Under the pieces are notes generated by a model. The model searched no databases. It was not told the DNA's origin and saw nothing but the letters and a program-made list of their open reading frames with translations. A stretch of DNA of 64,000 nucleotides from Escherichia coli (GTDB lineage: Bacteria > Pseudomonadota > Gammaproteobacteria > Enterobacterales > Enterobacteriaceae). This document shows, piece after piece, positions 1-57,400 of this stretch. The stretch is from NCBI RefSeq assembly GCF_050920415.1, contig NZ_CP169309.1, one strand, 5' to 3'. A program made the position numbers and the translations under genes. How positions within the stretch are numbered: position 1 is the first letter of the stretch; each line of letters starts with the position of its first letter.

Positions 1-49
1 CGCCTCAACCATTACAATAGCGACCCAATTTATCTGAACAGAGTTCATC

Positions 50-1669
50 ATGGCCAAAGCACCAACTAAAAAAGCCAAAGCAAAAAAAGGCTTTGAAGAA
101 ACATTATGGGATACCGCAAACCAGCTTCGCGGTAGCGTTGAATCCTCCGAATACAAGCACGTGGTGTTGAGCCTCGTGTTCCTGAAATTCATCAGCGATA
201 AGTTTGAAGCACGCCGCAAAAAAATGATTGCCGATGGGCAAGCAGACTTCCTTGAGATGGAAGTGTTCTACCAGCAGGACAACATTTTCTACCTGCCGGA
301 AGAGGCGCGCTGGTCATTTATCAAACAAAATGCCAAACAGGACGATATTGCGGTCCGTATTGACACCGCCCTCTCGACCATTGAGAAACGTAACCCAACG
401 CTGAAAGGCGCGCTGCCAGACAACTACTTCAGCCGTCAGAATCTGGAAACCAAAAAACTGGCGTCACTGATTGATACCATCGACAACATCGAAACGCTGG
501 CACACGAAACTGACGTTGAAACGTTATCGAAAGAAGACCTGGTCGGACGCGTTTACGAATACTTCCTCGGTAAGTTTGCCGCAACTGAAGGCAAAGGCGG
601 TGGTGAGTTCTACACGCCTAAATGTGTGGTTACGCTGTTAACTGAAATGCTCGAACCCTTTCAGGGCAAAATTTATGACCCGTGCTGCGGCTCGGCAGGG
701 ATGTTCGTGCAGTCGGTGAAGTTTGTCGAGAGCCATCAGGGTAAAAGTCGTGATATCGCGCTGTATGGTCAGGAACTGACAGCCACGACGTATAAACTGG
801 CAAAAATGAACCTCGCTATTCGCGGTCTTTCAGCTAACCTCGGCGAACGACCGGCAAACACTTTCTTTAGCGACCAGCACCCGGACCTGAAAGCTGACTA
901 CATTCTGGCGAACCCGCCGTTCAACCTGAAAGACTGGCGCAATGAAGCCGAATTAACCAAAGACCCACGTTTTGCTGGGTATCGTATGCCGCCAACCGGT
1001 AACGCCAACTACGGCTGGATTTTGCATATGCTCTCCAAGCTGTCGGCTAACGGCACAGCAGGTTTTGTACTGGCAAACGGTTCGATGAGTTCTAACACCA
1101 GCGGCGAAGGCGAGATCCGTGCACAGATGATCGAAAATGATCTGATCGACTGCATGATCGCCCTACCTGGACAGTTGTTTTACACCACGCAGATCCCGGT
1201 GTGTTTATGGTTTATGACCAAATCGAAGGCTGCCGACCCGGCCAAAGGTTATCGTGATCGTCAGGGCGAGACGCTGTTTATTGATGCGCGTAACCTCGGC
1301 ACCATGATTAGCCGCACAACTAAAGAGTTAACAGCGGAAGATATTGCCACAATCGCCGATACTTACCATGCCTGGCGCAGCACGCCGGAAGAACTGGCTG
1401 CACGGATTGCGCGTGGTGACAGCAAGCTGGAAAAATATGAAGACCAGGCTGGCTTCTGCAAAGTTGCGACCCTGCAAGACATTAAAGATAACGGCTACGT
1501 TCTGACACCGGGCCGCTATGTAGGTGCAGCCGAGCAGGAAGAGGACGGCGTGGCATTTGAGACCAAAATGCGTGAATTGTCGAAGACGTTGTTTGAGCAG
1601 ATGAAGCAGGCGGAAGAACTGGATCGTGCGATTCGCCAGAATCTGGAGGCGCTGGGTTATGGGGAGTAA
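50..1669 (+). CDS. hsdM: Type I restriction-modification methyltransferase subunit (HsdM)
   Basis: 539-aa ORF with AdoMet-binding motif DPCCGSAGMF and N6-adenine catalytic motif LANPPF; followed by an overlapping specificity-subunit gene. Sequence differs from EcoKI HsdM, so the family is not K-12-like. Confidence 0.9.
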   Translation: MAKAPTKKAKAKKGFEETLWDTANQLRGSVESSEYKHVVLSLVFLKFISDKFEARRKKMIADGQADFLEMEVFYQQDNIFYLPEEARWSFIKQNAKQDDIAVRIDTALSTIEKRNPTLKGALPDNYFSRQNLETKKLASLIDTIDNIETLAHETDVETLSKEDLVGRVYEYFLGKFAATEGKGGGEFYTPKCVVTLLTEMLEPFQGKIYDPCCGSAGMFVQSVKFVESHQGKSRDIALYGQELTATTYKLAKMNLAIRGLSANLGERPANTFFSDQHPDLKADYILANPPFNLKDWRNEAELTKDPRFAGYRMPPTGNANYGWILHMLSKLSANGTAGFVLANGSMSSNTSGEGEIRAQMIENDLIDCMIALPGQLFYTTQIPVCLWFMTKSKAADPAKGYRDRQGETLFIDARNLGTMISRTTKELTAEDIATIADTYHAWRSTPEELAARIARGDSKLEKYEDQAGFCKVATLQDIKDNGYVLTPGRYVGAAEQEEDGVAFETKMRELSKTLFEQMKQAEELDRAIRQNLEALGYGE

Positions 1670-2975
1670 GTGGGAAACAGTTAGACTTGGTGATTTAACA
1701 AAGTGGTCATCAGGTGGAACACCTAATAAATCGGAGGATTCATATTGGAATGGTACTATTCCGTGGATTAGCGCGTCCTCTATGGAAGGTCATTTATATA
1801 GCGATTCAAAGCTAAAAATAACTGAAGATGGCTTAATAAATGGCTCTCGACTCGCCCCTGCTAATAGCATTCTTCTTTTAGTAAGAGGCAGTATTCTTCA
1901 TCAAAAAATTCAAGTAGGTTTGGCTACAAAGGCTGTTGCATTTAATCAAGATGTAAAATGTCTCATAGTCAATAATGATATGATTGATCCTTGGTATCTT
2001 TTGCTATGGTTTAAAGCAAAAGAACAAGATCTACTAAAAATAGTAGAAAGCACTGGGATAGGCGCAGGGAAGCTTGACACTAAATTATTAATGGATTACC
2101 CAGTTGAAATTCCACCAAAAGAGATTAAAGAATATATCCGTTTTTTGGGGAAAGCGATTTTTGATAAAATAACGCTCAACGAAAATATAAACTATAATTT
2201 GGAAAAAATGTCCCAAACCTTGTTCAAATCCTGGTTTGTGGATTTTGATCCGGTGATTGATAACGCTCTGGATGTCGGAAATCAAATCCCGGAAGCCCTG
2301 CAAGCTCGTGCCGAATTGCGTCAAAAAGTACGTAATAGTGCAGATTTCAAACCACTTCCGACGGAAATCCGCTCGCTTTTCCCAAGTGAATTTGAAGAAA
2401 CGGAGTTAGGTTGGGTACCAAAAGGTTGGGAAATTGGAAAACTTCAAGACTTACTTATTTTACAAAGAGGATTTGATCTTCCTTCTACCCAAAGAAATAT
2501 CGGTTTACACCCAATAATAGCTGCTAGTGGCTATAATGGCACACATGACATCGCAATGGTGAAAGCCCCTGGGATTGTTACTGGCCGCTCTGGTGTATTA
2601 GGTAATGTTTTCCTAATCCTTGAAGACTTCTGGCCTCTGAATACAACGTTGTGGGTAAAAGAGCTAAAACATGCTACACCATGTTACGGATATGAGTTAC
2701 TTAAAATGATAGATTTCTCTTCATTTAATGGCGGTTCAGCTGTTCCAACATTAAACCGTAATCATATTCACAATTTGGATTACTTGCTTCCACCAAGAAA
2801 TTTAATTGAGAAATTTGAGTTATTTTCTATGTCGTTATATAGACAAGTTCACGAATTCAAAAAACAAGCCCAAACCCTAACAGCCCTCCGCGACACCCTG
2901 CTCCCGAAACTCATCTCCGGCGAGCTATCCCTGGAAGATCTTCCGGATCTCAGCACCGATACAGAAGCTGCATAA
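1659..2975 (+). CDS. hsdS: Type I restriction-modification specificity subunit (HsdS)
   Basis: Two AT-rich variable blocks (about 1680-2220 and 2400-2850) flank a GC-normal conserved core, the usual two-TRD HsdS layout. Likely start ATG 1659 overlaps the hsdM stop (ATGGGGAGTAA), suggesting translational coupling; the ORF track starts it at 1626. Confidence 0.85.
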   Translation: MGSKWETVRLGDLTKWSSGGTPNKSEDSYWNGTIPWISASSMEGHLYSDSKLKITEDGLINGSRLAPANSILLLVRGSILHQKIQVGLATKAVAFNQDVKCLIVNNDMIDPWYLLLWFKAKEQDLLKIVESTGIGAGKLDTKLLMDYPVEIPPKEIKEYIRFLGKAIFDKITLNENINYNLEKMSQTLFKSWFVDFDPVIDNALDVGNQIPEALQARAELRQKVRNSADFKPLPTEIRSLFPSEFEETELGWVPKGWEIGKLQDLLILQRGFDLPSTQRNIGLHPIIAASGYNGTHDIAMVKAPGIVTGRSGVLGNVFLILEDFWPLNTTLWVKELKHATPCYGYELLKMIDFSSFNGGSAVPTLNRNHIHNLDYLLPPRNLIEKFELFSMSLYRQVHEFKKQAQTLTALRDTLLPKLISGELSLEDLPDLSTDTEAA

Positions 2976-3069
2976 CGCATTTTGCCCCTGTAAAATCAGG
3001 GGCTTTCTGGTAAGGTTTTCTACTGATACGGGAATGCTTACCAGAAATTAGCCAGGGTTGGAGCGCGAT

Positions 3070-6000
3070 ATGAGTCTCTCTTTCAGTGAAGCAAAATTAG
3101 AACAAGCGATCATTGAACTGTTACAGGATCAGGGATATCAACACCTGATCGGCGATAATGTCCCACGTTCAAGTCTCGATCAGGTCATTATCGAAGACGA
3201 TCTCCGTCATTATTTAGCGGCACGCTACCAGCCTGATGGCATTACTGAAGAAGAGATTCAGCGACTGATCAAACAGTTCACCACGCTCCCCGCTTCCGAT
3301 CTTTATGAAAGCAACAAAACATTTTGTCGCTGGCTGGCAAATGGTTTTCTGTTCAAACGCGACGATCGGCAACAAAAAGATCTCTATATTGAATTGCTCG
3401 ACACCCGGCATCTACCTGCCGCACTGCGCCAGATATTTGACGCCGAAGATGTCCCGTTGCAACAGGCGGCGGAACTCCCGCCCTCCTATATTAATCCGCC
3501 GCTTAACCGGATTAAGATTGTTAACCAGCTTAAAATCTCCGGTAAAGATAATCAGACTCGTATTCCTGACGGCATTCTCTATATCAACGGTCTGCCACTG
3601 GTCGTCTTTGAATTTAAAAGTGCGGTGCGCGAGCAGGATGCCAGTATTGGCGATGCCTGGAAGCAGCTCTGTAAACGCTATCGCCGGGATATTCCGCAAC
3701 TGTTTATCTACAACGCGCTCTGCATTATTAGCGATGGCGTAAATAACCGGATGGGCAACCTGTTTGCGCCCTATGAATACTTTTACTCATGGCGCAAAGT
3801 CACCGGTAATGAAAACCGTGAACAGGACGGAATTCCGTCATTGCACTCAATGATTCAGGGGCTGTTTCATCCGGTACGTCTGCTGGATGTGATTAAAAAC
3901 TTTATCTGCTTCCCGGATAAAGCCAGGCACGAAGTAAAAATTTGCTGCCGATATCCGCAGTACTATGCCGCCCGCAAACTCTATTACAGCATCAAGCAAG
4001 CGCGTAAACCTTTCGGTAGCGGTAAAGGCGGCACCTACTTTGGCGCAACGGGCTGTGGCAAAAGTTACACCATGCAATTTTTAACGCGTCTTTTGATGAA
4101 GAGCGTGGAGTTTGCCAGCCCGACCATTGTTTTGATCACCGACCGCACCGATCTGGACGATCAGCTTTCTGCGCAAATGTGCAATGCCAAAAATTACATT
4201 GGCGACGACACCATCGTTCCTGTTACCAGCCGTGAAGATTTGCGTAATCAACTGGCGGGACGCAATAGTGGCGGTGTATTCCTGACAACGATCCATAAAT
4301 TCACCGAAGACACCGAACTCCTTTCTGAACGCAGCAATATCATTTGCATCTCGGACGAAGCACATCGCAGCCAGGTTAACCTCGACCAGAAAGTCATCGT
4401 CGATAAAGAAAGCGGAAAAGTGCGCAAAACTTATGGCTTTGCGAAATACCTGCACGATTCACTGCCAAACGCCACCTATGTTGGCTTTACCGGCACACCG
4501 ATTGACGCGACGCTCGATGTCTTCGGTGAGGTGATCGACAGTTACACCATGACCGAATCCGTTCAGGATGAAATCACTGTACGCATCGTGTACGAAGGCC
4601 GTGCGGCTAAAGTGATCCTGGACTCCAGCAAACTGGAAGAAGTCGAAAAGTATTACGAAGAGTGCGCAAACGCAGGCACCAATGAGTGGCAAATCGACGA
4701 AAGCAAGAAAGCCACGGCTACCATGAATGCGGTTCTGGGTGATGAAGATCGGTTAAAAGCCCTCGCGGAAGATTTTGCTAAACATTATGAAAAACGCGTA
4801 GCCGAAGGTTCCACCGTAAAAGGCAAAGCCATGTTTGTTTGCACCAGCCGTGAAATTGCCTGGGATTTCTACCGCCAGCTTAAAGCTATTCGCCCTGCCT
4901 GGTTTGAAGTGAAGCAAGCCCCCGATGGCGTCGTCCTGACGGAACAGGAGCAGAAAGAGTTACCGCCTTCAGAAATGGTGAAGATGGTCATGACGCGCGG
5001 TAAAGATGACGACGAGGCGCTTTATGATTTACTGGGCACAAAAGAATATCGTAAAGAGCTGGATAAGCAGTTCAAAAACGCTAAATCGAATTTCAAAATT
5101 GCCATTGTCGTTGATATGTGGCTGACCGGTTTCGACGTTCCTGAACTGGATACTATCTATATTGATAAACCCTTACAAAAACATAACCTTATCCAGACCA
5201 TTTCTCGCGTTAACCGTAAACTGGAAGGCAAAAGTAAAGGGTTAGTGGTGGACTATATCGGCATTAAGAGTCAGATGAACCAGGCACTGGCAATGTATTC
5301 CCGCATTGATGCCACCAACTTTGAAGATATTCAGCAATCGGTAATAGAAGTTAAAAACCATCTCGATTTGTTGGGGCAAGTCTTTTACGAATTTGACAGT
5401 CGGGATTATTTTAGTGGTGAGCCGCAAGCGCAATTATCCTGCCTCAACCGCGCGGCGGAATTCGTTCTGAGTACCCAGAAAGTTGAACGTCGTTTTATGG
5501 GACTGGTTAAACGCATGAAAGCCGCCTACGACGTCTGCTGCGGCAGCGAAGCATTATCACAGACAGAACGTGACTATATTCACTATTATCTTGCTGTTCG
5601 TTCAATTGTTTTCAAACTGACGAAAGGTGACGCACCGGATGTTACCCAGATGAATGCACGCGTTCGCGAAATGATTGCAGAAGCGTTAAAAGCTGATGGC
5701 GTAGAAGAGATTTATTTTCTTGGCGATAAAAAAGCGGAATCCATCGATATTTTTGACGAAGATTATCTGGCGCGAATTAACAAGATCAAACTTCCGGCAA
5801 CGAAGATCCAGTTATTACAAAAATTACTGGAAAAAGCAATCAGCGACTTCAAGAAAGTGAACCAGTTGCAAGGGATTAACTTCACCCGCCGCTTCCAGGC
5901 GATTATAGATCGTTATAATGAGCGGCGAGAAGATGATGTACTCAACGGTGAAGAATTCGATACATTCAGTCAGGAAATGACCGATATTATCTATGATATT

Positions 6001-6372
6001 AAAACCGAAATGGGCACCTGGGCCGACTTAGGCATTGATATTGAAGAAAAAGCCTTTTTCGACATTCTTGCTCATATGCGCGATAAATATCAGTTCACCT
6101 ATGACGATGAAAAAATGCTGTCACTGGCAAAAGAGATGAAAAGCGTGGTTGACAACACATCGAAATATCCTGACTGGAGTAAACGCGATGATATTAAAGC
6201 GAAACTGAAAGTTGAACTTATTCTGCTTCTACACAAGCATAAGTTCCCGCCAGTAGCGAATGATGATGTTTATATGGGTGTGCTGGCACAGGCAGAGAAT
6301 TTTAAAGAACATCATATGAGTGCTTTAAATTACTATGAACGCCGGATACACTTTGTTATCCGGCCATTGTGA
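3070..6372 (+). CDS. hsdR: Type I restriction enzyme endonuclease/translocase subunit (HsdR)
   Basis: About 1100 aa; N-terminal PD-(D/E)xK-like nuclease motif (YINGLPLVVFEFKSA), Walker A-like GATGCGKSYT and DEAH-type motif II (ICISDEAHRSQ); GGAG RBS 7 nt before ATG 3070. Gene order is M-S-R, unlike the K-12 R-M-S order. Confidence 0.85.
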   Translation: MSLSFSEAKLEQAIIELLQDQGYQHLIGDNVPRSSLDQVIIEDDLRHYLAARYQPDGITEEEIQRLIKQFTTLPASDLYESNKTFCRWLANGFLFKRDDRQQKDLYIELLDTRHLPAALRQIFDAEDVPLQQAAELPPSYINPPLNRIKIVNQLKISGKDNQTRIPDGILYINGLPLVVFEFKSAVREQDASIGDAWKQLCKRYRRDIPQLFIYNALCIISDGVNNRMGNLFAPYEYFYSWRKVTGNENREQDGIPSLHSMIQGLFHPVRLLDVIKNFICFPDKARHEVKICCRYPQYYAARKLYYSIKQARKPFGSGKGGTYFGATGCGKSYTMQFLTRLLMKSVEFASPTIVLITDRTDLDDQLSAQMCNAKNYIGDDTIVPVTSREDLRNQLAGRNSGGVFLTTIHKFTEDTELLSERSNIICISDEAHRSQVNLDQKVIVDKESGKVRKTYGFAKYLHDSLPNATYVGFTGTPIDATLDVFGEVIDSYTMTESVQDEITVRIVYEGRAAKVILDSSKLEEVEKYYEECANAGTNEWQIDESKKATATMNAVLGDEDRLKALAEDFAKHYEKRVAEGSTVKGKAMFVCTSREIAWDFYRQLKAIRPAWFEVKQAPDGVVLTEQEQKELPPSEMVKMVMTRGKDDDEALYDLLGTKEYRKELDKQFKNAKSNFKIAIVVDMWLTGFDVPELDTIYIDKPLQKHNLIQTISRVNRKLEGKSKGLVVDYIGIKSQMNQALAMYSRIDATNFEDIQQSVIEVKNHLDLLGQVFYEFDSRDYFSGEPQAQLSCLNRAAEFVLSTQKVERRFMGLVKRMKAAYDVCCGSEALSQTERDYIHYYLAVRSIVFKLTKGDAPDVTQMNARVREMIAEALKADGVEEIYFLGDKKAESIDIFDEDYLARINKIKLPATKIQLLQKLLEKAISDFKKVNQLQGINFTRRFQAIIDRYNERREDDVLNGEEFDTFSQEMTDIIYDIKTEMGTWADLGIDIEEKAFFDILAHMRDKYQFTYDDEKMLSLAKEMKSVVDNTSKYPDWSKRDDIKAKLKVELILLLHKHKFPPVANDDVYMGVLAQAENFKEHHMSALNYYERRIHFVIRPL

Positions 6373-6452
6373 ATTAACGTTAATTTCTCTTCCAGATATC
6401 TCCAGTAACGCTTTTATTATTTTCTATTTTTAGCTGGACTTTCCCTGTATTT

Positions 6453-6470
6453 ACTGATGATATGTCCAGG
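6453..6470 (+). promoter_or_regulatory. Candidate LexA box (CTG-N10-CAG) upstream of symE
   Basis: TACTGATGATATGTCCAGG matches the CTG-N10-CAG SOS-box spacing about 80 bp upstream of the symE start; symE is a known SOS-induced gene. Confidence 0.4.
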
Positions 6471-6546
6471 TATTTAGCGCGGTGCGGATGTGCGCCAACA
6501 CACCCGCACCGCTAATCACAATCCCTATTTCTAAGGAATAGTAATC

Positions 6547-6888
6547 ATGACTGACACGCATTCTATTGCACAACCGTTCGAAGCAGAAGTCTCCCCGGCA
6601 AATAACCGTCAATTAACCGTGAGTTATGCGAGTCGCTACCCGGATTACAGCCGTATTCCCGCCATCACCCTGAAAGGTCAGTGGCTGGAAGCCGCCGGTT
6701 TTGCCACCGGCACGGCGGTAGATGTCAAAGTGATGGAAGGCTGTATTGTCCTCACCGCCCAACCACCCGCCCCCGAAGAGAGCGAACTGATGCAGTCGCT
6801 GCGCCAGGTGTGCAAACTGTCAGCGCGTAAACAGAAGCAGGTGCAGGAGTTTATTGGGGTGATTGCCGGTAAACAGAAAGTCGCCTGA
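6547..6888 (+). CDS. symE: SOS-induced toxin SymE (AbrB-fold, type I toxin-antitoxin toxin)
   Basis: 113-aa ORF recognised as SymE, in the conserved position beside the hsd genes. Confidence 0.85.
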
Positions 6889-6934
6889 TACATTGACCCG
6901 GTAGCGCCAGTGCTACCGGGTATTATTCGCCACG

Positions 6935-9028
6935 TTATACCAACGCGCTCTCCATCTGTTTTTCAAATGCCTGACGGATTAATCCCATAATGTAAGGAAG
7001 TTGTGCGAGGTCGCTGAAACCAATTTCTACATCGCCATTGCCCCAGCGCCCAACATTTGTGACATCTTTGGCAATACCTTTCGGATCGACCAGTTCATGA
7101 AACTGCATATTAAGCGACAATCGCAGTCGGCTTTTTTGCGGCACAACATCAACAAAATTCGTTTCCGCTTTAAACGCAATATAGAGCTTCAATACTTCCT
7201 GCGTGATCCCTGCGTCCAGGCGCATAACTTCATCGCGAAGATGATCGAATAACACCCGGCTATGCGAACCATCAGCAAGAAAAGGATAATCACTCAGGCT
7301 GTAACTGGTTTTGTTCTCCGGCTGCGCCCGATAAACAGCTAAAACCTCTTCAGGAAGAGCAGGCGCTTGCCAGACCTGAACCGCGAGATCGGCCAGACGA
7401 TCGGCTCGGGCGTGAATGGCAGCTTCATCCCATTTTTCGCACTGTCCAAGACCGATATTCAAATAGAGCGGGCTATGTTTAAAGCCATCTTCAATATCGC
7501 GTTTTTCCGCGAAAGGTCTGTCACTGTAGCGGGAGTTATAGCGCGTTAATGTGAGATTCCCCAACGTATGCAACAGTTCTTTATGCACACGCTGCCAGTC
7601 GCTTCCCAGCTCTTCACGCCATTTAGCCGACAAATTTTCGTTCTGCGGCATAATGTGCTCAATCGTAAACTCTTCCACGCGCTCTCTGCGTTTATCGTTT
7701 TCCAGTCGTCGTAACCAGTAACTGCGACTGCGGAAGTTATAGAGATCGCGAACTTTTAATTCCCGTTTAAATTCATCATCGTTGGGGAAACGACGATATG
7801 AAGGTAGATTCAGAAAATGTACCTGAATACTTTCCAGATAATTTTCTTTATTAATAACTTTATAAAAAGTGGCAAACGTCTTGTTAAGAGAATTTGTCGG
7901 AATCGCACATACTGCACGGCGGAAAACATAAGATTCAATTGAACGAATTATGCTCAGGAAATCTTCGTGAGACAAATCGCCATTTTTATAGTCATGATAA
8001 AGCGCCAGTAAGAAAGGATACGCTACATCGACCTTTAACTCGCGCAAATCCTGAAAAGCCGTAGCAAGCGATTTGTCACTTTCTTTTCCCAATGCCATTG
8101 CACAGTAATACTCCGCGTAGATGTGAATATCTTCAACCAGCCGATCTACGCCTTTTTCAGCAACACTCTGGCTACGGGCATGTAGTTTAAATGCCTCATA
8201 GACTTCATCTGTCCGAGGGATCTCCCCCGTTTTTACCGTCAGATAATGACGCATAAAACTGTCAAAATATTCGCTGTAACCTTGCTGACCAAAAGCGACT
8301 TCCATTGGACGCCAGTGATCTTCATACAACCGGGTTTGATGCTCTGGTTCGAGGCCCATCAGGATAAAATTGCGCACCAGATCGGCCTGACTTAACGCCT
8401 TACCGGTGGAGTTCATACTTTCAAAAATCAGTTGCGGATTATCCTGGCCACGATTAAGTGCCACATCGACAATTAATAACTTTGCTAACCCACGACATAA
8501 GGGGATCAAGTCATCACCGAGTTTGGCAATTTGCTCATCAAAGAAAGTAAAGTTTTCCATTATTCGATGGGAATAGTTTTCTGGCATTGGTCTTTGTTTT
8601 ATTAACGCCAGTAGACTGTCTTTATCAGTCTCGGTCAGCAGTAATTTAAAACCTTTCTCGCCGGACTCATAAGGATTGAGCAAATAATAATTACGCAATT
8701 TCATTGCCGAAAAGCCATCAAAAACTTCGTCTTCGCCAAGATGGCGCGATAAAGCCTCAATCAGCAACATTGCGGTCGTCAGCCGCTGCTGACCATCAAT
8801 GACCAGCAACGGAGAAATACCAGAAACCTGATACAACCCCTGCTCAATATAAACAACCGAACCGATAAAATGCGCTGATATATCGTCACGCTTTCCGGCA
8901 CGAATGATGTCGTCCCAAAGTTGCCGACATTGTTGCCCGGTCCATGAATAGGTGCGTTGATAAATGGGAATAACAAACTGCTGCGAACGTTTTAAAAAAT
9001 CGAGTAGGCGAGCCTCTGTGGCTTTCAT
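6935..9028 (-). CDS. DUF262/DUF1524 two-domain nuclease, GmrSD-like putative modification-dependent (type IV) restriction enzyme
   Basis: 697-aa ORF; N-terminal DUF262 hallmark DGQQRLTT, C-terminal His-Me-finger-like region (EHIMPQNE...). Sits where K-12 carries mcrBC. Confidence 0.7.
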   Translation of the reverse strand: MKATEARLLDFLKRSQQFVIPIYQRTYSWTGQQCRQLWDDIIRAGKRDDISAHFIGSVVYIEQGLYQVSGISPLLVIDGQQRLTTAMLLIEALSRHLGEDEVFDGFSAMKLRNYYLLNPYESGEKGFKLLLTETDKDSLLALIKQRPMPENYSHRIMENFTFFDEQIAKLGDDLIPLCRGLAKLLIVDVALNRGQDNPQLIFESMNSTGKALSQADLVRNFILMGLEPEHQTRLYEDHWRPMEVAFGQQGYSEYFDSFMRHYLTVKTGEIPRTDEVYEAFKLHARSQSVAEKGVDRLVEDIHIYAEYYCAMALGKESDKSLATAFQDLRELKVDVAYPFLLALYHDYKNGDLSHEDFLSIIRSIESYVFRRAVCAIPTNSLNKTFATFYKVINKENYLESIQVHFLNLPSYRRFPNDDEFKRELKVRDLYNFRSRSYWLRRLENDKRRERVEEFTIEHIMPQNENLSAKWREELGSDWQRVHKELLHTLGNLTLTRYNSRYSDRPFAEKRDIEDGFKHSPLYLNIGLGQCEKWDEAAIHARADRLADLAVQVWQAPALPEEVLAVYRAQPENKTSYSLSDYPFLADGSHSRVLFDHLRDEVMRLDAGITQEVLKLYIAFKAETNFVDVVPQKSRLRLSLNMQFHELVDPKGIAKDVTNVGRWGNGDVEIGFSDLAQLPYIMGLIRQAFEKQMESALV

Positions 9029-9465
9029 CCTGGCGTCCTTCCGTGAAGCAATAATGACGCAATAATAACCACTTCCTTGTGAAGGTTATAGCGAAATCCG
9101 GTTTATCCGCGATGAATTGCCCCCTCACTCCACATCCTCCCTGCGTAACCCAATATCTCTCAACCGCTCATCACTCATCTGCTGTAACACGCGTCGGGTC
9201 TGCATTTGCCGCCGCCAACGCCTCACCGCCTGCCAGAGTTGCACCAGGCCGATAAACGGCGCTTTAGCTCTGTTTTCGTGAAATTCCATCTGCTGCCTCC
9301 TCATCTTTCAGAGGCTTCATCATCCGCCTTCTGGCAGTTCACAATACAGATGCAAATATTAGTTTTATTTAACATACAGACAGGTTAAAACAACATCTGC
9401 ATCCGGTTTTTTAGCCTCATCTGTACCGGTTTTTCTCTCTGTATGGTCCAAATAAGGAGTACAGC

Positions 9466-51002: not shown

Positions 51003-51719
51003 ATGAAAAAGGCTAAAATACTTTCTGGCGTATTATTACTGTGCTTTTCGTCACCATTAATTTCTCAAGCTGCGACACTAGACGTACGTGGTGGATATCG
51101 TAGTGGAAGCCACGCCTATGAGACTCGACTCAAAGTCAGTGAGGGATGGCAAAATGGATGGTGGGCAAGTATGGAAAGTAATACCTGGAATACCATTCAT
51201 GATAATAAAAAGGAAAATGCCGCACTCAATGATGTTCAGGTTGAAGTTAATTACGCGATTAAACTTGATGATCAATGGACGGTGCGCCCGGGAATGTTAA
51301 CGCATTTTAGCAGCAACGGCACACGCTACGGACCCTACGTAAAACTGTCCTGGGACGCGACAAAAGATCTTAATTTTGGCATTCGCTATCGTTACGACTG
51401 GAAAGCTTACCGACAACAAGACTTATCCGGTGAGATGTCTCGTGATAACGTTCATCGTTGGGATGGATATGTCACTTACCATATTAATAGTGATTTCACC
51501 TTCGCATGGCAAACGACGCTATACAGCAAACAAAACGATTATCGCTATGCAAACCATAAGAAATGGGCGACGGAAAATGCATTTGTTCTACAATACCATA
51601 TGACGCCTGATATTACGCCATACATAGAATATGACTACCTTGACCGTCAGGGTGTTTATAACGGCAGAGATAATTTATCAGAAAACAGTTATCGCATTGG
51701 TGTGTCATTTAAACTGTAG
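51003..51719 (+). CDS. nanC: N-acetylneuraminic acid outer-membrane channel NanC (KdgM family)
   Basis: About 238 aa from MKKAKILSGVLLLCFSSPLISQA, with signal peptide. Confidence 0.9.
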   Translation: MKKAKILSGVLLLCFSSPLISQAATLDVRGGYRSGSHAYETRLKVSEGWQNGWWASMESNTWNTIHDNKKENAALNDVQVEVNYAIKLDDQWTVRPGMLTHFSSNGTRYGPYVKLSWDATKDLNFGIRYRYDWKAYRQQDLSGEMSRDNVHRWDGYVTYHINSDFTFAWQTTLYSKQNDYRYANHKKWATENAFVLQYHMTPDITPYIEYDYLDRQGVYNGRDNLSENSYRIGVSFKL

Positions 51720-51738
51720 TAGACAGGAGACAGTCACA

Positions 51739-52845
51739 ATGAATAAAACAATAACGGCGCTTGCTATCATGATGGCTTCATTTGCCGCAAACGCGTCTGT
51801 ATTACCGGAAACTCCGGTGCCATTTAAAAGTGGTACCGGAGCAATTGATAACGACACTGTCTACATTGGTTTAGGTAGCGCAGGTACGGCATGGTACAAG
51901 CTGGATACACAGGCCAAAGATAAAAAATGGATAGCGTTAGCTGCATTCCCTGATGGGGCGAGAGATCAAGCAACCTCTGCATTTATTGATGGCAATCTGT
52001 ACGTATTTGGCGGCATTGGCAAAAACAGCGAAGGCTTGACTCAGGTATTTAATGACGTACACAAATACAACCCCAAAACCAATAGCTGGGTTAAATTGAT
52101 GTCGCACGCGCCGATGGGCATGGCGGGCCATGTGACTTTTGTACACAACGGCAAGGCTTATGTTACTGGCGGTGTTAACCAGAATATCTTCAATGGCTAT
52201 TTTGAAGATCTCAACGAAGCTGGAAAAGATTCAACCGCTATAGATAAAATCAACGCCCACTATTTTGACAAAAAAGCAGAAGATTATTTCTTCAATAAGT
52301 TTCTGTTGTCTTTTGATCCCTCAACACAGCAATGGAGTTACGCTGGCGAATCTCCCTGGTACGGGACGGCTGGTGCAGCGGTTGTGAATAAAGGCGATAA
52401 AACCTGGCTTATTAATGGTGAAGCCAAACCAGGACTACGAACGGATGCCGTATTTGAACTTGATTTCACCGGTAATAATTTGAAATGGAATAAACTTGCT
52501 CCCGTCTCATCACCAGATGGCGTCGCTGGCGGTTTTGCAGGCATGAGCAATGACTCACTTATATTTGCCGGAGGGGCCGGATTCAAAGGTTCACGGGAAA
52601 ATTACCAAAACGGTAAGAACTATGCGCATGAAGGCCTGAAAAAATCATATAGCGCTGATATTCATCTTTGGCATAACGGGAAATGGGATAAATCGGGCGA
52701 ATTATCGCAAGGTCGGGCCTACGGAGTATCATTGCCCTGGAATAATAGTTTATTGATTATTGGCGGTGAAACTGCAGGCGGCAAAGCGGTAACGGATTCA
52801 GTATTGATCTCTGTGAAGGATAATAAAGTCACAGTGCAAAACTAA
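51739..52845 (+). CDS. nanM: N-acetylneuraminate mutarotase NanM (Kelch-repeat beta-propeller)
   Basis: 368 aa from MNKTITALAIMMASFAANA; the track ORF extends upstream into nanC. Confidence 0.9.
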   Translation: MNKTITALAIMMASFAANASVLPETPVPFKSGTGAIDNDTVYIGLGSAGTAWYKLDTQAKDKKWIALAAFPDGARDQATSAFIDGNLYVFGGIGKNSEGLTQVFNDVHKYNPKTNSWVKLMSHAPMGMAGHVTFVHNGKAYVTGGVNQNIFNGYFEDLNEAGKDSTAIDKINAHYFDKKAEDYFFNKFLLSFDPSTQQWSYAGESPWYGTAGAAVVNKGDKTWLINGEAKPGLRTDAVFELDFTGNNLKWNKLAPVSSPDGVAGGFAGMSNDSLIFAGGAGFKGSRENYQNGKNYAHEGLKKSYSADIHLWHNGKWDKSGELSQGRAYGVSLPWNNSLLIIGGETAGGKAVTDSVLISVKDNKVTVQN

Positions 52846-52909
52846 CGCTTCAGGGCCCCAGTAAAGGGGCCCTACTATCAATTTATCATTTCAATTACGC
52901 GAAAATTAT

Positions 52910-53890
52910 ATGAACGCAATAATATCGCCCGATTATTACTATGTTCTTACCGTTGCTGGTCTGTCTAATGCCATGGCGTATGGCGAAGGACTGCCATTAC
53001 CGGACAGGGAAGATACGCCTCATCCCAGAATTAAACAATTAGCGAGATTTGCGCATACGCATCCCGGAGGCCCGTCATGTCACTTTAACGACATTATTCC
53101 ACTGACTCACTGCCCACACGATGTTCAGGATATGCAGGGTTATCACCATCCTCTGGCAACGAATCATCAAACACAGTACGGCACCGTTGGCCAGGCTCTG
53201 CATATTGCACGGAAATTACAGCCCTTTATTCCTGATAACGCGGGGGTTCTCATCGTTCCATGTTGCCGTGGCGGATCGGCTTTTACTGCGGGCAGCGAAG
53301 GGACATATTCAGAACGGCACGGAGCCAGCCATGATGCTTGTCGTTGGGGAACGGATACCCCTCTATACCAGGATTTAGTCAGCAGAACGCGAGCCGCACT
53401 GGCAAAAAATCCGCATAACAAATTCCTCGGCGTATGCTGGATGCAAGGCGAATTTGACTTAATGACAAGTGACTACGCGTCACACCCTCAACACTTTAAT
53501 CATATGGTTGAAGCCTTTCGTAGGGATCTAAAACAATACCATTCTCAGCTTAATAATATTACTGGCGCGCCGTGGTTTTGCGGCGATACCACCTGGTACT
53601 GGAAAGAAAGTTTCCCTCATGCGTATGAAGCTATTTATGGCAATTATCAAAATAATATTTTAGCCAATATTATTTTCATCGACTTCCAGCAACAAGGTGA
53701 AAGAGGGCTGACGAACGCGCCTGATGAAGATCCGGACGATTTAAGCACGGGATATTTCGGTTCAGCGTACCGGTCACCGGAGAACTGGACGACGGCACTG
53801 CGAAGCAGTCATTTCAGCGCGGCAGCCCGTCGGGGGATTATTTCTGACAGGTTTGTAGAAGCAATTTTGCAGTTTTGGAGCGAAAGGTGA
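52910..53890 (+). CDS. nanS: 9-O-acetyl-N-acetylneuraminate esterase NanS
   Basis: 326-aa ORF recognised as NanS/YjhS. Confidence 0.85.
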   Translation: MNAIISPDYYYVLTVAGLSNAMAYGEGLPLPDREDTPHPRIKQLARFAHTHPGGPSCHFNDIIPLTHCPHDVQDMQGYHHPLATNHQTQYGTVGQALHIARKLQPFIPDNAGVLIVPCCRGGSAFTAGSEGTYSERHGASHDACRWGTDTPLYQDLVSRTRAALAKNPHNKFLGVCWMQGEFDLMTSDYASHPQHFNHMVEAFRRDLKQYHSQLNNITGAPWFCGDTTWYWKESFPHAYEAIYGNYQNNILANIIFIDFQQQGERGLTNAPDEDPDDLSTGYFGSAYRSPENWTTALRSSHFSAAARRGIISDRFVEAILQFWSER

Positions 53891-54472
53891 GCGGGGAGTT
53901 TATTCATGGGGGATGTCCTTGTCCGTTCCCAAAACAGGCAACAAAAAACAAATGAGATCAAGGTAATATCTCTTCACTTGCAGGCTCGAACAGCAGGCAA
54001 TTGCCAATATAATAATCTGGCACAAGGGTGAAAAACGCGCACCGCATAAACCGTTGTTATTGCTTAAAGATTAGCCGGATGCCTTAATAGACATCCGCGC
54101 CTTTTCGATTATGGCTCGGAAATCTACGAACCTCTGCACAGTTTACTGGAACGTTTTGGACCACAGCGTTCACAGTACCGACCTGATATGCCGTTCTGGC
54201 GATTATAAGGCGACGGATTCTGGCAAATAGACGATGATAATATGCTTAATGATGTTCAAAGAAATTAGGCCATCATTATATTATTGCTTGCATTTTCTTT
54301 CATTCCCAAAAGCACCCGCCATTAATCCCAGGCGCATTATGCAAAGGAAAATGATTAGGTAAACAATAAGATTTATAATCAGGAAAGGCGACTCGCAATA
54401 AAACGCAAAGTCGCCTTAACATTGGTAAAATATGCCCTTTACTACTCCTGTATCATGAACGGCTCATCACAT

Positions 54473-57400
54473 TTAAAGCTGACGTTGATCCAGACTGCTA
54501 TATATTGCCTTTATTTCATTTTTTACGCTTTCGCCACGGTACACCAAAGACGTATCGTATCGTTGATACTTATCTTCCCGTGCAGCACTGAACCAGTTAA
54601 AAGATCCGACACACAGCAGTTCTTCATCCTCAATCACAATTTTGCTGTGGACACGATTAACCAATTTCGTAGCGATACCCATCTTATTGAGCTTTTCAAC
54701 AGCATCATTCAGCAGATGTTTTTTCTCCTGACGCTTATCATCATCGACATGCGCTATATTGCAGTTTTTATCCGTCACCACAGTAATATCAATGCCCCGG
54801 GAACGGGCCAAAGCCATTGATGCCAGAAATCCCGTTTGCTCCATTTTTTGCCAGGATAACCAAGGGGAAATAATCGTTATTTTCTTTTGAGCTCCGGCAA
54901 GAGTCATGTTCAAAAATTCATCATGCTGCTCCACGCCATGCAGCGTTGAAATTTGTGTATGTGCGGAAATTAAATCCTGTCGTTTATGAAACTCAAATTG
55001 CAACGCATTATTATCTGAAGAAAAGAGATATTTTGCCAATAACCCTCGCGGCGAAAATGCGGGCTGCATCTCGATAAGGTCCATATCGCCAAATACCAGA
55101 AAACTATCTTTAGCGCGTGAGACAGCAACATTGAGGATACTGCTGTTGCTATCAAGAAACCTGCCATCTTCATGTTTTGAGTAGACTGGAGAAAAGAGAA
55201 CAATCGCCCTTTCCGCCCCCTGCAAGGAGTGCACAGTCCCCACTGTCAGTGAACCCTCCTCGTCTTTGCCATTAATTTCCAGCTTACGCAATGACGTTTT
55301 GATAGCATTAACCTGCGCCGAAAATGGCGTCACAACACCAACAACTTTGTACAGTGGTTCCCCGTAATGGCGCTCTATATCATCCTTATGTGCCACCAGC
55401 CATGCTGCTATTGTTTCAGCTTCAAGAGGGTTATAACGGCTCCCCCCATTTGGCTTCATGCCTCTACCATCAATATGTAAATATCCCATTGCGGGGAAAA
55501 TCGTCCCTTTTTCCATCCCTCTTTTAGGCTGCAACTTACCGTGATAGCAAAGTGAGTTACAGTAGCCGATGATGTTATTGAAACAGCGACGATGCTCATA
55601 CAGATACATTCCGCGCTCGAACTTGGGATCATACTGGTAGTGAGAGTTAAACTGGGCTACCTGCATTACGCTGCCAGATGCTGCACTTTTTCCAGACCCA
55701 CACACGTGAGTATATGTATTTATTAACTCTTCCTGAGTGCCACCAGAAATAATATTCTCCTCAAGCATATTGCCCATATCAGTGACGGGTAGACAATTCC
55801 AGATTGGAGCTATTTGCTCCGTATCGCCAATCACCAGCGCTTTCTTCGCCAATGCAAAGGAAGCTGCAGCAACCTCCGGGAGTACCTGCCCGGCTTCATC
55901 GACAATCAGTAAATCAGCAAAGTTATATAAATAATTATTATCCGATGTTCTATCGCCACCAAAAGATTTTCTTCTGTTCATATGGTAAGGCAACATGTAG
56001 CAGGTCATCACCACACAAGGAGTAAGTTTCATTCTTCTTAGCCAACGAGCCTCGGCGATAGTTATCCCGGTAATTCCTTTTTCTTTTTGCAAATTATCTA
56101 TAGCTGCCATATCAATCAGCCAACGCCCCTCCCAATAATGGGTCGCTACCAAGAACGCTGGAAAACGAATCTGAGTATCGGCAAGTTCATCCGCTCCTGA
56201 AAGATTCAATTCATCGTCACCTCTGTAACCCAAAGCATAAGTCAACTCACGCCATTGTTTTGCAGCTTCTATTTCGCGTCGGGCTATATCCTTCGCATAG
56301 TTGATGTTCTGTTGGCACTCATCCTGCTCCTTTTGCGTTTTAGCAATCAAACTATCAATAAATTCATCAATATCTTCGGGATAATTTCCCTGGAACGATG
56401 TCATTCTTGTGCCAAACGTAGAGTCCAGGAAGAGGTTAATCTGGTAATGGCGTTTAGTACGAACAGCAGGAAGCCATGACAAAACCGCATACACTAGCGA
56501 CTCATCAGCACGGTATTGCTGCCACTGCTTTTTACCTCTTGTTAAAAGTGAAATTTCATTGCCAATATTGAGAAGACGTGTGTTTTCGTCCTGAAGATAC
56601 TGGTCGAGATTCTCACTGATGGCTCGCTGTTCATGGCGGATATCATTAAGCCTGCGCCATGTGGGTTCGATTTGCTGAAGTTGAATAAACTGTGAAGTTA
56701 AACGTTCATGCAAAAGCGTCACTACATGCTCTGGTGAATTGCACTCTCCAGCTCCAAACGCCACCTCCGCTTTTTCAAGGTAAAATGCCCGGGCTTTTTC
56801 CAGATATTCCTGGGATTCAACGTGGTTAAAAAAATCTTCAGTCTGGTATTTCTTCGCAGCCTCAACCTGACGGCTTTTAGACGGAAAATAAGCGCCATAG
56901 CTTATTACCTCCGGCAACCAACGACCAGCCATTACGCCAAAACCAGTAGAGAAATCTTTTCCAAAGGCTTCAATAATATTGGTGACGGCCTGATTGTTAG
57001 TTGATGTGGCAATAATTACAGGAGGTTCAGCTTGATTAAGTGCGGCTCTAGTCCATTCGGTGGCGATAATAGAAAGCACCAGCGTAGTTTTACCCGTTCC
57101 CGGAGGACCGTTAACAGCGAGCATATCCCCCTGCTGTTGAGTCAGATAATGGCTCAGGGCATCGCGCTGCGCCACTGCCAGCGGAAACTTATCGCCGGAA
57201 TGCCCCAGACGTTCGCAGAACATAGCATTCTTAGCGAGAAGTGGCTCTAGTGGAACCATTTCATTTGAGGCAAAACGCGTTAATAGAGGAACCTTAACCT
57301 GGCTCATCAGCAGATGGTCATACAAAGGCAGGATATGAACACTGGCCCCTACATGCTGGCTAGCTTTAACAATATAACCGTATCCAGCCCGTTCGTATGG

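Follow-up and report, generated by a model that had tools for sequence, protein, structure and literature searches.

The question raised by the left end of the window (the whole 64,000-nucleotide stretch of Escherichia coli DNA that was analysed, contig NZ_CP169309.1) is whether the run of defence and toxin genes at positions 1–9465 represents a hypervariable island whose contents are exchanged, as a preliminary description of the sequence had proposed. These genes comprise a type I restriction-modification (R-M) system, symE and a DUF262/DUF1524 nuclease gene. Positions 1–9465 cover the greater part of an allele of the Immigration Control Region (ICR, 'hotspot 36') of E. coli: variable content, mostly devoted to defence, was found between the anchors yjiA and yjiS/yjiR/yjiN near 98.5 min, which is how this region is recognised. 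We consider it very probable that the allele is made up of a type ID R-M system, symE/symR and an intact GmrSD-like enzyme, which are independent units exchanged as cassettes by homologous recombination. The ICR of E. coli K-12 and its relatives was reportedly treated by Raleigh in 1992 and by Sibley and Raleigh in 2004. The region is described in PMC3874165, PMC4437046 and PMC12707154; the last of these, a 2025 EcoSal review, lists type IA, IB and ID systems, mrr, mcrBC and gmrSD, and brnAT, symER and rpn among its contents (Fig. 10 and Table 3) and anchors its right side at yjiN. The main text of Hochhauser 2023 mentions neither yjiA nor mcrBC nor the ICR. An ICR allele is an already known kind of locus; among the details added here are the hsdS allele, the assignment of this R-M system to type ID and the rare arrangement of a type ID system with a GmrSD-like gene.

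Organization of the allele and its flanks

All three modules named in the preliminary description were present in the first 9.4 kb, about 93% of which consists of genes. The order was hsdM, hsdS, hsdR, symR/symE, a DUF262-DUF1524-DUF5655 nuclease gene on the opposite strand, yjiS and then yjiR, which starts at position 9466. The symR gene, yjiS and the third nuclease domain, DUF5655, had been left out of that description. The whole region is 100% identical to that of E. coli MFDS1022581 (NZ_CP169399.1). The features were as follows.

50–1669, plus strand: hsdM, N6-adenine methyltransferase subunit of the system assigned to type ID, 539 aa (PADLOC MTase_I, 638 bits)
1659–2975, plus strand: hsdS, specificity subunit, 438 aa (PADLOC Specificity_I, 365 bits; the mechanically called open reading frame, ORF, starts at 1626)
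2984–3003, plus strand: terminator-like hairpin in the gap between hsdS and hsdR (pattern scan alone)
3070–6372, plus strand: hsdR, restriction and translocase subunit, 1100 aa (TIGR00348, PADLOC REase_I; ORF start at 3058)
6454–6469, plus strand: LexA-box-like CTG-N10-CAG element 5' of symE, CTGATGATATGTCCAG here and CTGATGATATATACAG at the K-12 equivalent
6476–6552, minus strand: symR antisense antitoxin RNA (Rfam RF01809, 93.1 bits, full model 1–77)
6547–6888, plus strand: symE, toxic DNA-binding protein, 113 aa (NF010128, 230 bits)
6897–6920, strand not assigned: inverted repeat in the gap between the convergent symE and GmrSD-like genes, read from the sequence as CCCGGTAGC-GCCAGT-GCTACCGGG
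6935–9028, minus strand: single-chain GmrSD-family putative type IV nuclease, 697 aa (Pfam, PADLOC)
6959–7258, minus strand: DUF5655 C-terminal domain of the 697-aa nuclease (aa 591–690), with a modelled YjbR/YdhG-like alpha+beta fold
9125–9289, minus strand: yjiS (DUF1127), as RefSeq annotates it in the identical genome; the conserved genes on the right of the variable part begin here
Just left of window position 1 (retrieved locus L001:12205–13986): brnA, a brnT pseudogene and a 388-aa Mrr_cat nuclease gene

The promoter-like and terminator-like sites found by the pattern scan showed no enrichment over shuffled sequence. The hairpin at 2984–3003 weakly suggests that hsdMS and hsdR may form separate transcription units, and the inverted repeat at 6897–6920, judged from its sequence, is likely to be a bidirectional terminator.

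The sequence beyond the left edge had been singled out as deserving the same scrutiny, and this was justified. In the identical genome the order was btsT, yjiX, yjiA, brnA, the brnT pseudogene, the 388-aa nuclease gene and hsdM, with the stop codon of the nuclease gene 63 bp before the start of hsdM. The 388-aa protein matched Mrr_cat (E 4e-28) and, over its full length, the PADLOC candidate PDC-S02 (683 bits). Further defence content, a second nuclease gene and a brnTA remnant, lies between hsdM and yjiA. To the right of the variable part, the same genome carried yjiS, yjiR, rpn, mdtM and yjiN in this order. The island spans yjiA to yjiS.

Alternative contents at the same site

The site was compared with its counterpart in other strains. 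In MG1655, given in the same orientation, the order was yjiA, mrr, hsdR-hsdM-hsdS (type IA), symR/symE, mcrBC, yjiV, yjiT, yjiS and yjiR, and this genome aligned solely to window positions 6416–6884 (symR/symE, 94% identity) and from 9120 onward (about 95%), that is, from yjiS on. The preliminary description was right in that the content differs from K-12 while the locus is kept. The K-12 ICR resembles the window in its site between yjiA and yjiS/yjiR/yjiN, in combining type I and type IV restriction with symE/symR and in the replacement of cassettes. It differs in that the type IA hsdRMS of K-12 is replaced here by type ID hsdMSR, its mrr by the Mrr-cat/PDC-S02 nuclease and brnTA remnant, and its mcrBC, yjiV and yjiT by the GmrSD-like gene.

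Strains O157:H7 and LF82 carried a different DUF262 gene, an hsdRMS of the EcoAI family (type IB), symE and the same GmrSD-like gene as the window. In ATCC 25922, 04-00955 and the sequence type 131 (ST131) strain EC958, brnTA, the Mrr-cat gene, hsdMSR and symE were followed by just 55 bp before yjiS. NCTC9040 had the arrangement of the window, and IAI1 had a penicillin G acylase gene alone between yjiS and yjiA. In 117 genomes the site was occupied by a fourth type I family, accompanied by Fic, BrnA and a paralogue that is 76% identical to the 697-aa nuclease. Six different contents, that of the window included, were found at the ICR site. The proposal of fixed boundaries held in part: the same conserved flanks border differing contents, but the right edge is not rigid, as LF82 lacks yjiR and mdtM.

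Gene counts were obtained in 5,426 complete E. coli genomes, a clonally biased sample. The symE block was present in 2,859 of them, the type IA hsdR in 935, the type IB hsdR in 941, the hsdR of the window in 862 and the Mrr-cat gene in 879. The GmrSD-like gene was found, at least 80% covered, in 1,287 genomes (24%), and 1,403 of 1,404 places of this gene were chromosomal. The whole 9.4-kb combination was found in 36 genomes and the hsdS allele of the window in one. The gene set is consequently far from invariant in the species, and the DUF262 gene is an accessory gene rather than a housekeeping one and is often decayed, with frameshifts in O157:H7 and NCTC9040. These frequencies, together with the alternative alleles found at the site, bear out the hypervariable defence island with exchanged contents that had been proposed.

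Some other observations were made on this site. E. coli 14EC029 carries beside mcrBC an intact gene for a 2114-aa DEAD/DEAH-box helicase (L008:12117–18461), at the position occupied in K-12 by the yjiV pseudogene and yjiT, and what K-12 carries there seems, on this comparison, to be the remains of another large ICR gene. Variation extends to the right-hand neighbours of the island as well: mdtM is missing from 04-00955, and LST200A has an IS1-associated deletion running from symE into rpn. The Rpn-family gene, at 11120–12076 in the window, is often a pseudogene.

The type I system is assigned to type ID

The three hsd genes are contiguous, with an 11-nt overlap of hsdM and hsdS. HsdR scored 467 bits against TIGR00348 (cut-off 284.55) and 1715 bits against PADLOC REase_I, and it contains the PD...EFK motif (about aa 168–187) of a PD-(D/E)xK nuclease and the DEAH motif (aa 429) of a superfamily 2 (SF2) helicase motor. 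HsdM has the NPPF motif at aa 288, as a gamma-class N6-adenine methyltransferase does; its score against NCBIfam TIGR00497 (170 bits) was under the equivalog cut-off of 242.75, which reflects divergence of the family and not absence of HsdM. Both halves of HsdS matched PADLOC Specificity_I models, which gives the two variable target-recognition domains of such a subunit.

StySBLI is the founder of type ID, and StySBLI, EcoR9I and KpnAI are members of the family. To belong to it, a system needs an HsdR and an HsdM that exceed about 90% identity to those of a member (PMC2481252); subunit complementation and cross-reaction of antibodies are experimental criteria of the family. The HsdM of the window was 99.6% identical to that of ATCC 25922 and EC958, called EcoMII in the latter, and 25% and 27% identical to those of K-12 (IA) and O157 (IB), respectively. 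HsdR was 99.4% identical to its counterpart in EC958 and ATCC 25922, two strains with identical HsdM and HsdR proteins; its similarity to the IA and IB HsdR was not significant or merely local, and the match to the HsdR of EcoR124I (IC) reached just 88 bits, so a type IC assignment was rejected. EcoMII has been described in EC958 as an hsdM-hsdS-hsdR operon adjoining 'Mrr', whose R subunit shares 92% identity with that of StySBLI, and a knockout in this ST131 strain proved that it methylates AAC(N4)CTTT (Forde et al., PMC4659465). By its identity to EcoMII and the published 92% between EcoMII and StySBLI, the system of the window is assigned to type ID; HsdR falls within the family through EcoMII, and identity to types IA, IB and IC is low. 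The target of EcoMII would be compatible with the 6 bp between methylated adenines of type ID. A different argument, assignment to type ID by elimination on the assumption of three ICR families, was dropped when the fourth type I family was found in the ICR of 117 genomes.

The gene order hsdM-hsdS-hsdR beside an Mrr-like gene is common to EcoMII and the window, but the HsdR of the window is 13 aa longer at its C-terminus and HsdS is a different protein. It was 36% identical to the HsdS of ATCC 25922 and NCTC9040. At least 80% of the hsdS allele was covered solely in the source genome among the 5,426, and what other genomes share with it are the central (nt 504–771) and C-terminal conserved regions. 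Since HsdS is 36% identical to that of EcoMII and has other target-recognition domains, its recognition sequence is not AAC(N4)CTTT, and its distance from the other alleles indicates a new specificity. Type I families normally change specificity in this way.

symE and symR

SymE scored 230 bits against NF010128 (cut-off 132) and was 95.6% identical to the K-12 protein. The symR RNA, with a score well above the Rfam gathering score of 61, overlaps the symE ATG at 6547, and the LexA-like box matches that of K-12 at 14 of 16 bases, that is, with two substitutions. The copy in the window thus has, at the sequence level, the features of a type I toxin-antitoxin pair, namely SymE, a cis-antisense SymR over its 5' end and a LexA box. 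SOS control of symE is known from the literature. The preliminary description had called SymE an RNA-targeting toxin, a view that has been superseded: as summarised in PMC11894785, Thompson 2022 reports no RNase activity for SymE and instead DNA binding and nucleoid condensation, and the K-12 RefSeq record names SymE a nucleoid-associated protein.

In all nine loci examined with an intact symE (IA, IB and ID, with any hsd gene order), this gene lay directly 3' of the last hsd gene and in the same orientation. The symE matches ended at three points (query positions 449, 469 and 473), and in the loci inspected the end point tracked the content of the next slot (empty, mcrBC or GmrSD-like), indicating that the last SymE codons differ between alleles; the SymE of ATCC 25922 has 112 aa. 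The window copy thus resembles K-12 symE/symR in the position of the LexA-like box, in the full symR model and in the overlap with the symE start, and differs from it in the last codons and downstream sequence, which vary with the occupant of the next slot. The idea that symE is a fixed anchor separating two independent slots was rejected, the gene being absent from 47% of the genomes and from IAI1.

An intact single-chain GmrSD-like nuclease

The 697-aa protein matched GmrSD_N/DUF262 (PF03235, E 4e-34), GmrSD_C/DUF1524 (PF07510, E 1.6e-26) and DUF5655 (E 3e-13), as well as the PADLOC models Orf5 (740 bits) and HEC-06 (223 bits). DUF262 occupies aa 9–222 and is followed by a helical linker, DUF1524 (aa 415–547) and DUF5655. 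The motifs QRTYSW (aa 24), DGQQR (aa 78) and EHIMP (HxxP, aa 457–461) were present, which is the composition of a single-chain DUF262 protein with a DUF1524 His-Me nuclease. Homologues of 697–701 aa spanned the protein from end to end with 67–84% identity (67–76% in other phyla), and the exact protein is present in GenBank.

In RefSeq, the PGAP annotation presents this uninterrupted ORF as a 387-aa coding sequence plus an N-terminal 'pseudogene, missing C-terminus'. The same split was found in the source genome, LF82 and strain I4, and tblastn gave one frame in all three; split copies in the retrieved loci lie at L006:12004–14094 (LF82) and L009:9513–11603. As nothing breaks the frame, this division of the gene is an artefact of annotation. 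The LF82 copy is intact and 99.1% identical. The gene is truly frameshifted in O157:H7 and NCTC9040, and the 387-aa model probably stems from these copies. RefSeq thus systematically mis-annotates an intact and common nuclease, and defence censuses based on protein records could undercount or mis-size it.

He et al. 2015 (PMC4437046, Fig. 8) had already listed ICR copies of a GmrSD homologue under the names APECO1_2080, UTI89_C5048 and LF82_736. These are the same gene at the same position, partnered there by a type IB system and by type ID in the window. The protein D782_3934, which is 74% identical to the nuclease of the window, is placed by the supplement of PMC12373910 in CLS_001, the largest GmrSD cluster among Enterobacteria, a cluster from which that paper reports having tried a representative against T-even phages. 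Through D782_3934, the nuclease of the window belongs with CLS_001. Its architecture, a DUF262 NTPase and a DUF1524 His-Me nuclease in one chain, is that of Eco94GmrSD/GmrSD-CT596, BrxU and SspE, although SspE matched just its first 95 or so residues. BrxU, found in BREX, also shares with it the setting of a defence island beside a modification-based system. The extra C-terminal DUF5655 sets the window protein apart from the characterised GmrSD enzymes. From its modelled YjbR/YdhG-like fold, this tail is possibly a DNA-binding module; a literature search for DUF5655 returned nothing relevant. BLASTP gave no similarity between the DUF262 gene and the yjiT pseudogene region of K-12, and the possibility that the former is an intact version of the latter was rejected.

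The contexts of this nuclease elsewhere were analysed in seven loci obtained by exact-protein look-ups. Its orthologue (X) was found in the order hsdM-hsdS-X-hsdR in Kiritimatiella and Salinivibrio, in the order hsdM-X-hsdS in a cyanobacterium, after hsdR in Oceanimonas, and divergent from hsdM in the fourth E. coli ICR type I family; one further orthologue followed the BREX gene brxL and another lay beside Wadjet-like genes. The HsdR partners fell into at least four mutually unrelated groups (21–24% identity), whereas the nuclease itself was 67–76% identical. Association of DUF262 genes with type I loci has already been published (RloF, Machnicka 2015, PMC4619093; Payne 2024); the present association supports a reading as complementary defence and is not new in kind.

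Probable exchange of cassettes

Homology to the IA and IB alleles started at 6416/6417 in three comparisons, ended at 6864–6884 and resumed at 9117–9120. The slot between symE and yjiS measured 55 bp in ATCC 25922, 2.25 kb in the window and 7.6 kb in K-12. Identity to ATCC 25922 fell from 98–100% to 84–94% from about position 6300, and from this point the window matched the GmrSD-bearing alleles instead, as would be expected from a crossover close to the 3' end of hsdR. In every examined allele with the window-type hsdR cassette the Mrr-cat gene adjoined hsdR, and the two genes have similar frequencies (879 and 862 genomes). The genes hsdS, hsdR and the GmrSD-like gene had a GC content of 39–46%, and yjiR reached 55%. 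Positions 1–9465 contained neither an integrase or transposase gene nor a tRNA gene or terminal repeat, and the slot junctions compared showed no target-site duplication. These alleles have probably arisen by replacement of whole cassettes through homologous recombination in the short conserved flanks (yjiA, the symR/symE block and yjiS), with deletions adding to the diversity and a dedicated mobility enzyme not involved. Such replacement, which we infer from a handful of loci, agrees with the model of the ICR in the literature.

The type I system would act as an HsdS2M2 complex that methylates a bipartite target, and an unmethylated target would recruit HsdR, leading to DNA translocation and cutting. 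Expression of symE would be driven by the LexA-box promoter, and translation of its transcript would be blocked by the antisense symR. The GmrSD-like enzyme, composed of a ParB-like NTPase, a His-Me-finger nuclease and the YjbR/YdhG-like C-terminal domain, is expected to cut hypermodified phage DNA that evades modification-sensitive restriction; the defining activity of such enzymes is NTP-stimulated cleavage of DNA that carries glc-hmC, hmC or m5C. The three would be transcribed separately and would each be aimed at a different kind of incoming DNA. What was observed are the gene identities, their intactness, the family assignments, the breakpoints and the pan-genome frequencies; how the enzymes act, what the GmrSD-like enzyme cuts and how recombination proceeds are predictions.

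Weighing of the alternatives

Several points weigh against independent, exchangeable units as set out above. The type ID cassette and the GmrSD-like gene occur jointly in 36 genomes, against about 204 expected under independence, which indicates that the slots do not reassort freely in the sampled, clonally biased genomes. Recombination in the flanks is deduced from breakpoints in about 10 loci. The link from type ID to StySBLI is a published percentage, and the characterised Eco94GmrSD shares only some 24% identity with the GmrSD-like clade (He 2015, PMC4437046).

The modules might instead cooperate, with the nuclease as an accessory dedicated to type I systems and SymE as a safeguard, or an effector of last resort, that is triggered by SOS and linked to type I restriction. 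This is unlikely, though less so than the other alternatives. The orthologues at 67–76% identity lie in or abut type I operons of at least four unrelated HsdR groups, with one after brxL, and the position of symE directly after the last hsd gene in nine of nine loci was seen likewise in strain FGI 57. The number of genomes with symE (2,859) is also close to the sum of those with IA, IB and ID hsdR (935 + 941 + 862 = 2,738), in a comparison of totals. However, most E. coli type ID cassettes come without the GmrSD-like gene (862 against 36 genomes), the nuclease of the window is on the opposite strand with symE between it and hsd, and in O157:H7 and NCTC9040 it is frameshifted while hsd is intact. 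Moreover, the orthologue beside Wadjet-like genes has no type I system, the fourth E. coli ICR type I family has no symE, and the literature reads the association of DUF262 with type I loci as complementary, independent defence (PMC4619093; Payne 2024). A more specific version, to which we give somewhat less credence still, would make the unusually conserved nuclease clade a portable plug-in of type I and BREX systems from unrelated families that senses escaping DNA by its C-terminal domain, and SymE an SOS-triggered, nucleoid-condensing safeguard of type I restriction, which may protect the chromosome from self-restriction or impose a last-resort growth arrest. If true, this coupled function would give SymE a physiological role and explain the conservation of the nuclease clade across phyla. 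Decay of the locus, with the genes as inactive relics, is improbable. The brnT gene to the left is a pseudogene, the nuclease is frameshifted in the two strains just named and RefSeq calls the window copy a fragment plus a pseudogene, but this last split is the annotation artefact described above, all five ORFs reach the full length of their close and distant homologues and keep their catalytic motifs, and the near-identical EcoMII methylates its sites in ST131 (PMC4659465). Least probable of all, and very unlikely in our judgement, is a mobile genomic island inserted horizontally by site-specific recombination or transposition. Several genes of low GC content, the patchy distribution of the contents, the nearby Rpn-family 'putative transposase' gene (11120–12076) and the insertion sequence (IS) elements that disrupt the locus in some genomes would fit it; the lack of mobility genes, terminal repeats and target-site duplications noted above does not, and the same conserved flanks border five different contents, and nearly every copy of the nuclease gene sits at a single chromosomal position in its genome.

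Exchange of independent units within the ICR hence remains the explanation that we favour. The window contributes a further allele of a textbook defence island, a result of modest practical value: type ID combined with a GmrSD-like gene is a rare arrangement that looks recombinant, and the hsdS allele is absent from 5,425 other complete genomes.

Other observations in the window

The GC content of the window (1–64000) is 47.4%, below the E. coli genomic value of about 50.8%, and fits several horizontally acquired segments. The leuX tRNA hotspot ('hotspot 37') also lies inside the 64-kb window, at about 51640–58380, and contains IS2, a fragment of a sialate O-acetylesterase gene, the 1171-aa helicase yjhR, tRNA-Leu and a frameshifted remnant of a phosphorothioate-dependent restriction endonuclease gene. 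The core genes at 9120–13000 are about 95% identical to K-12, and E. coli M863 has nuclease, HsdM and HsdR proteins identical to those of the window; taken together, the flank identity and the M863 matches suggest that the window may come from a divergent Escherichia lineage.

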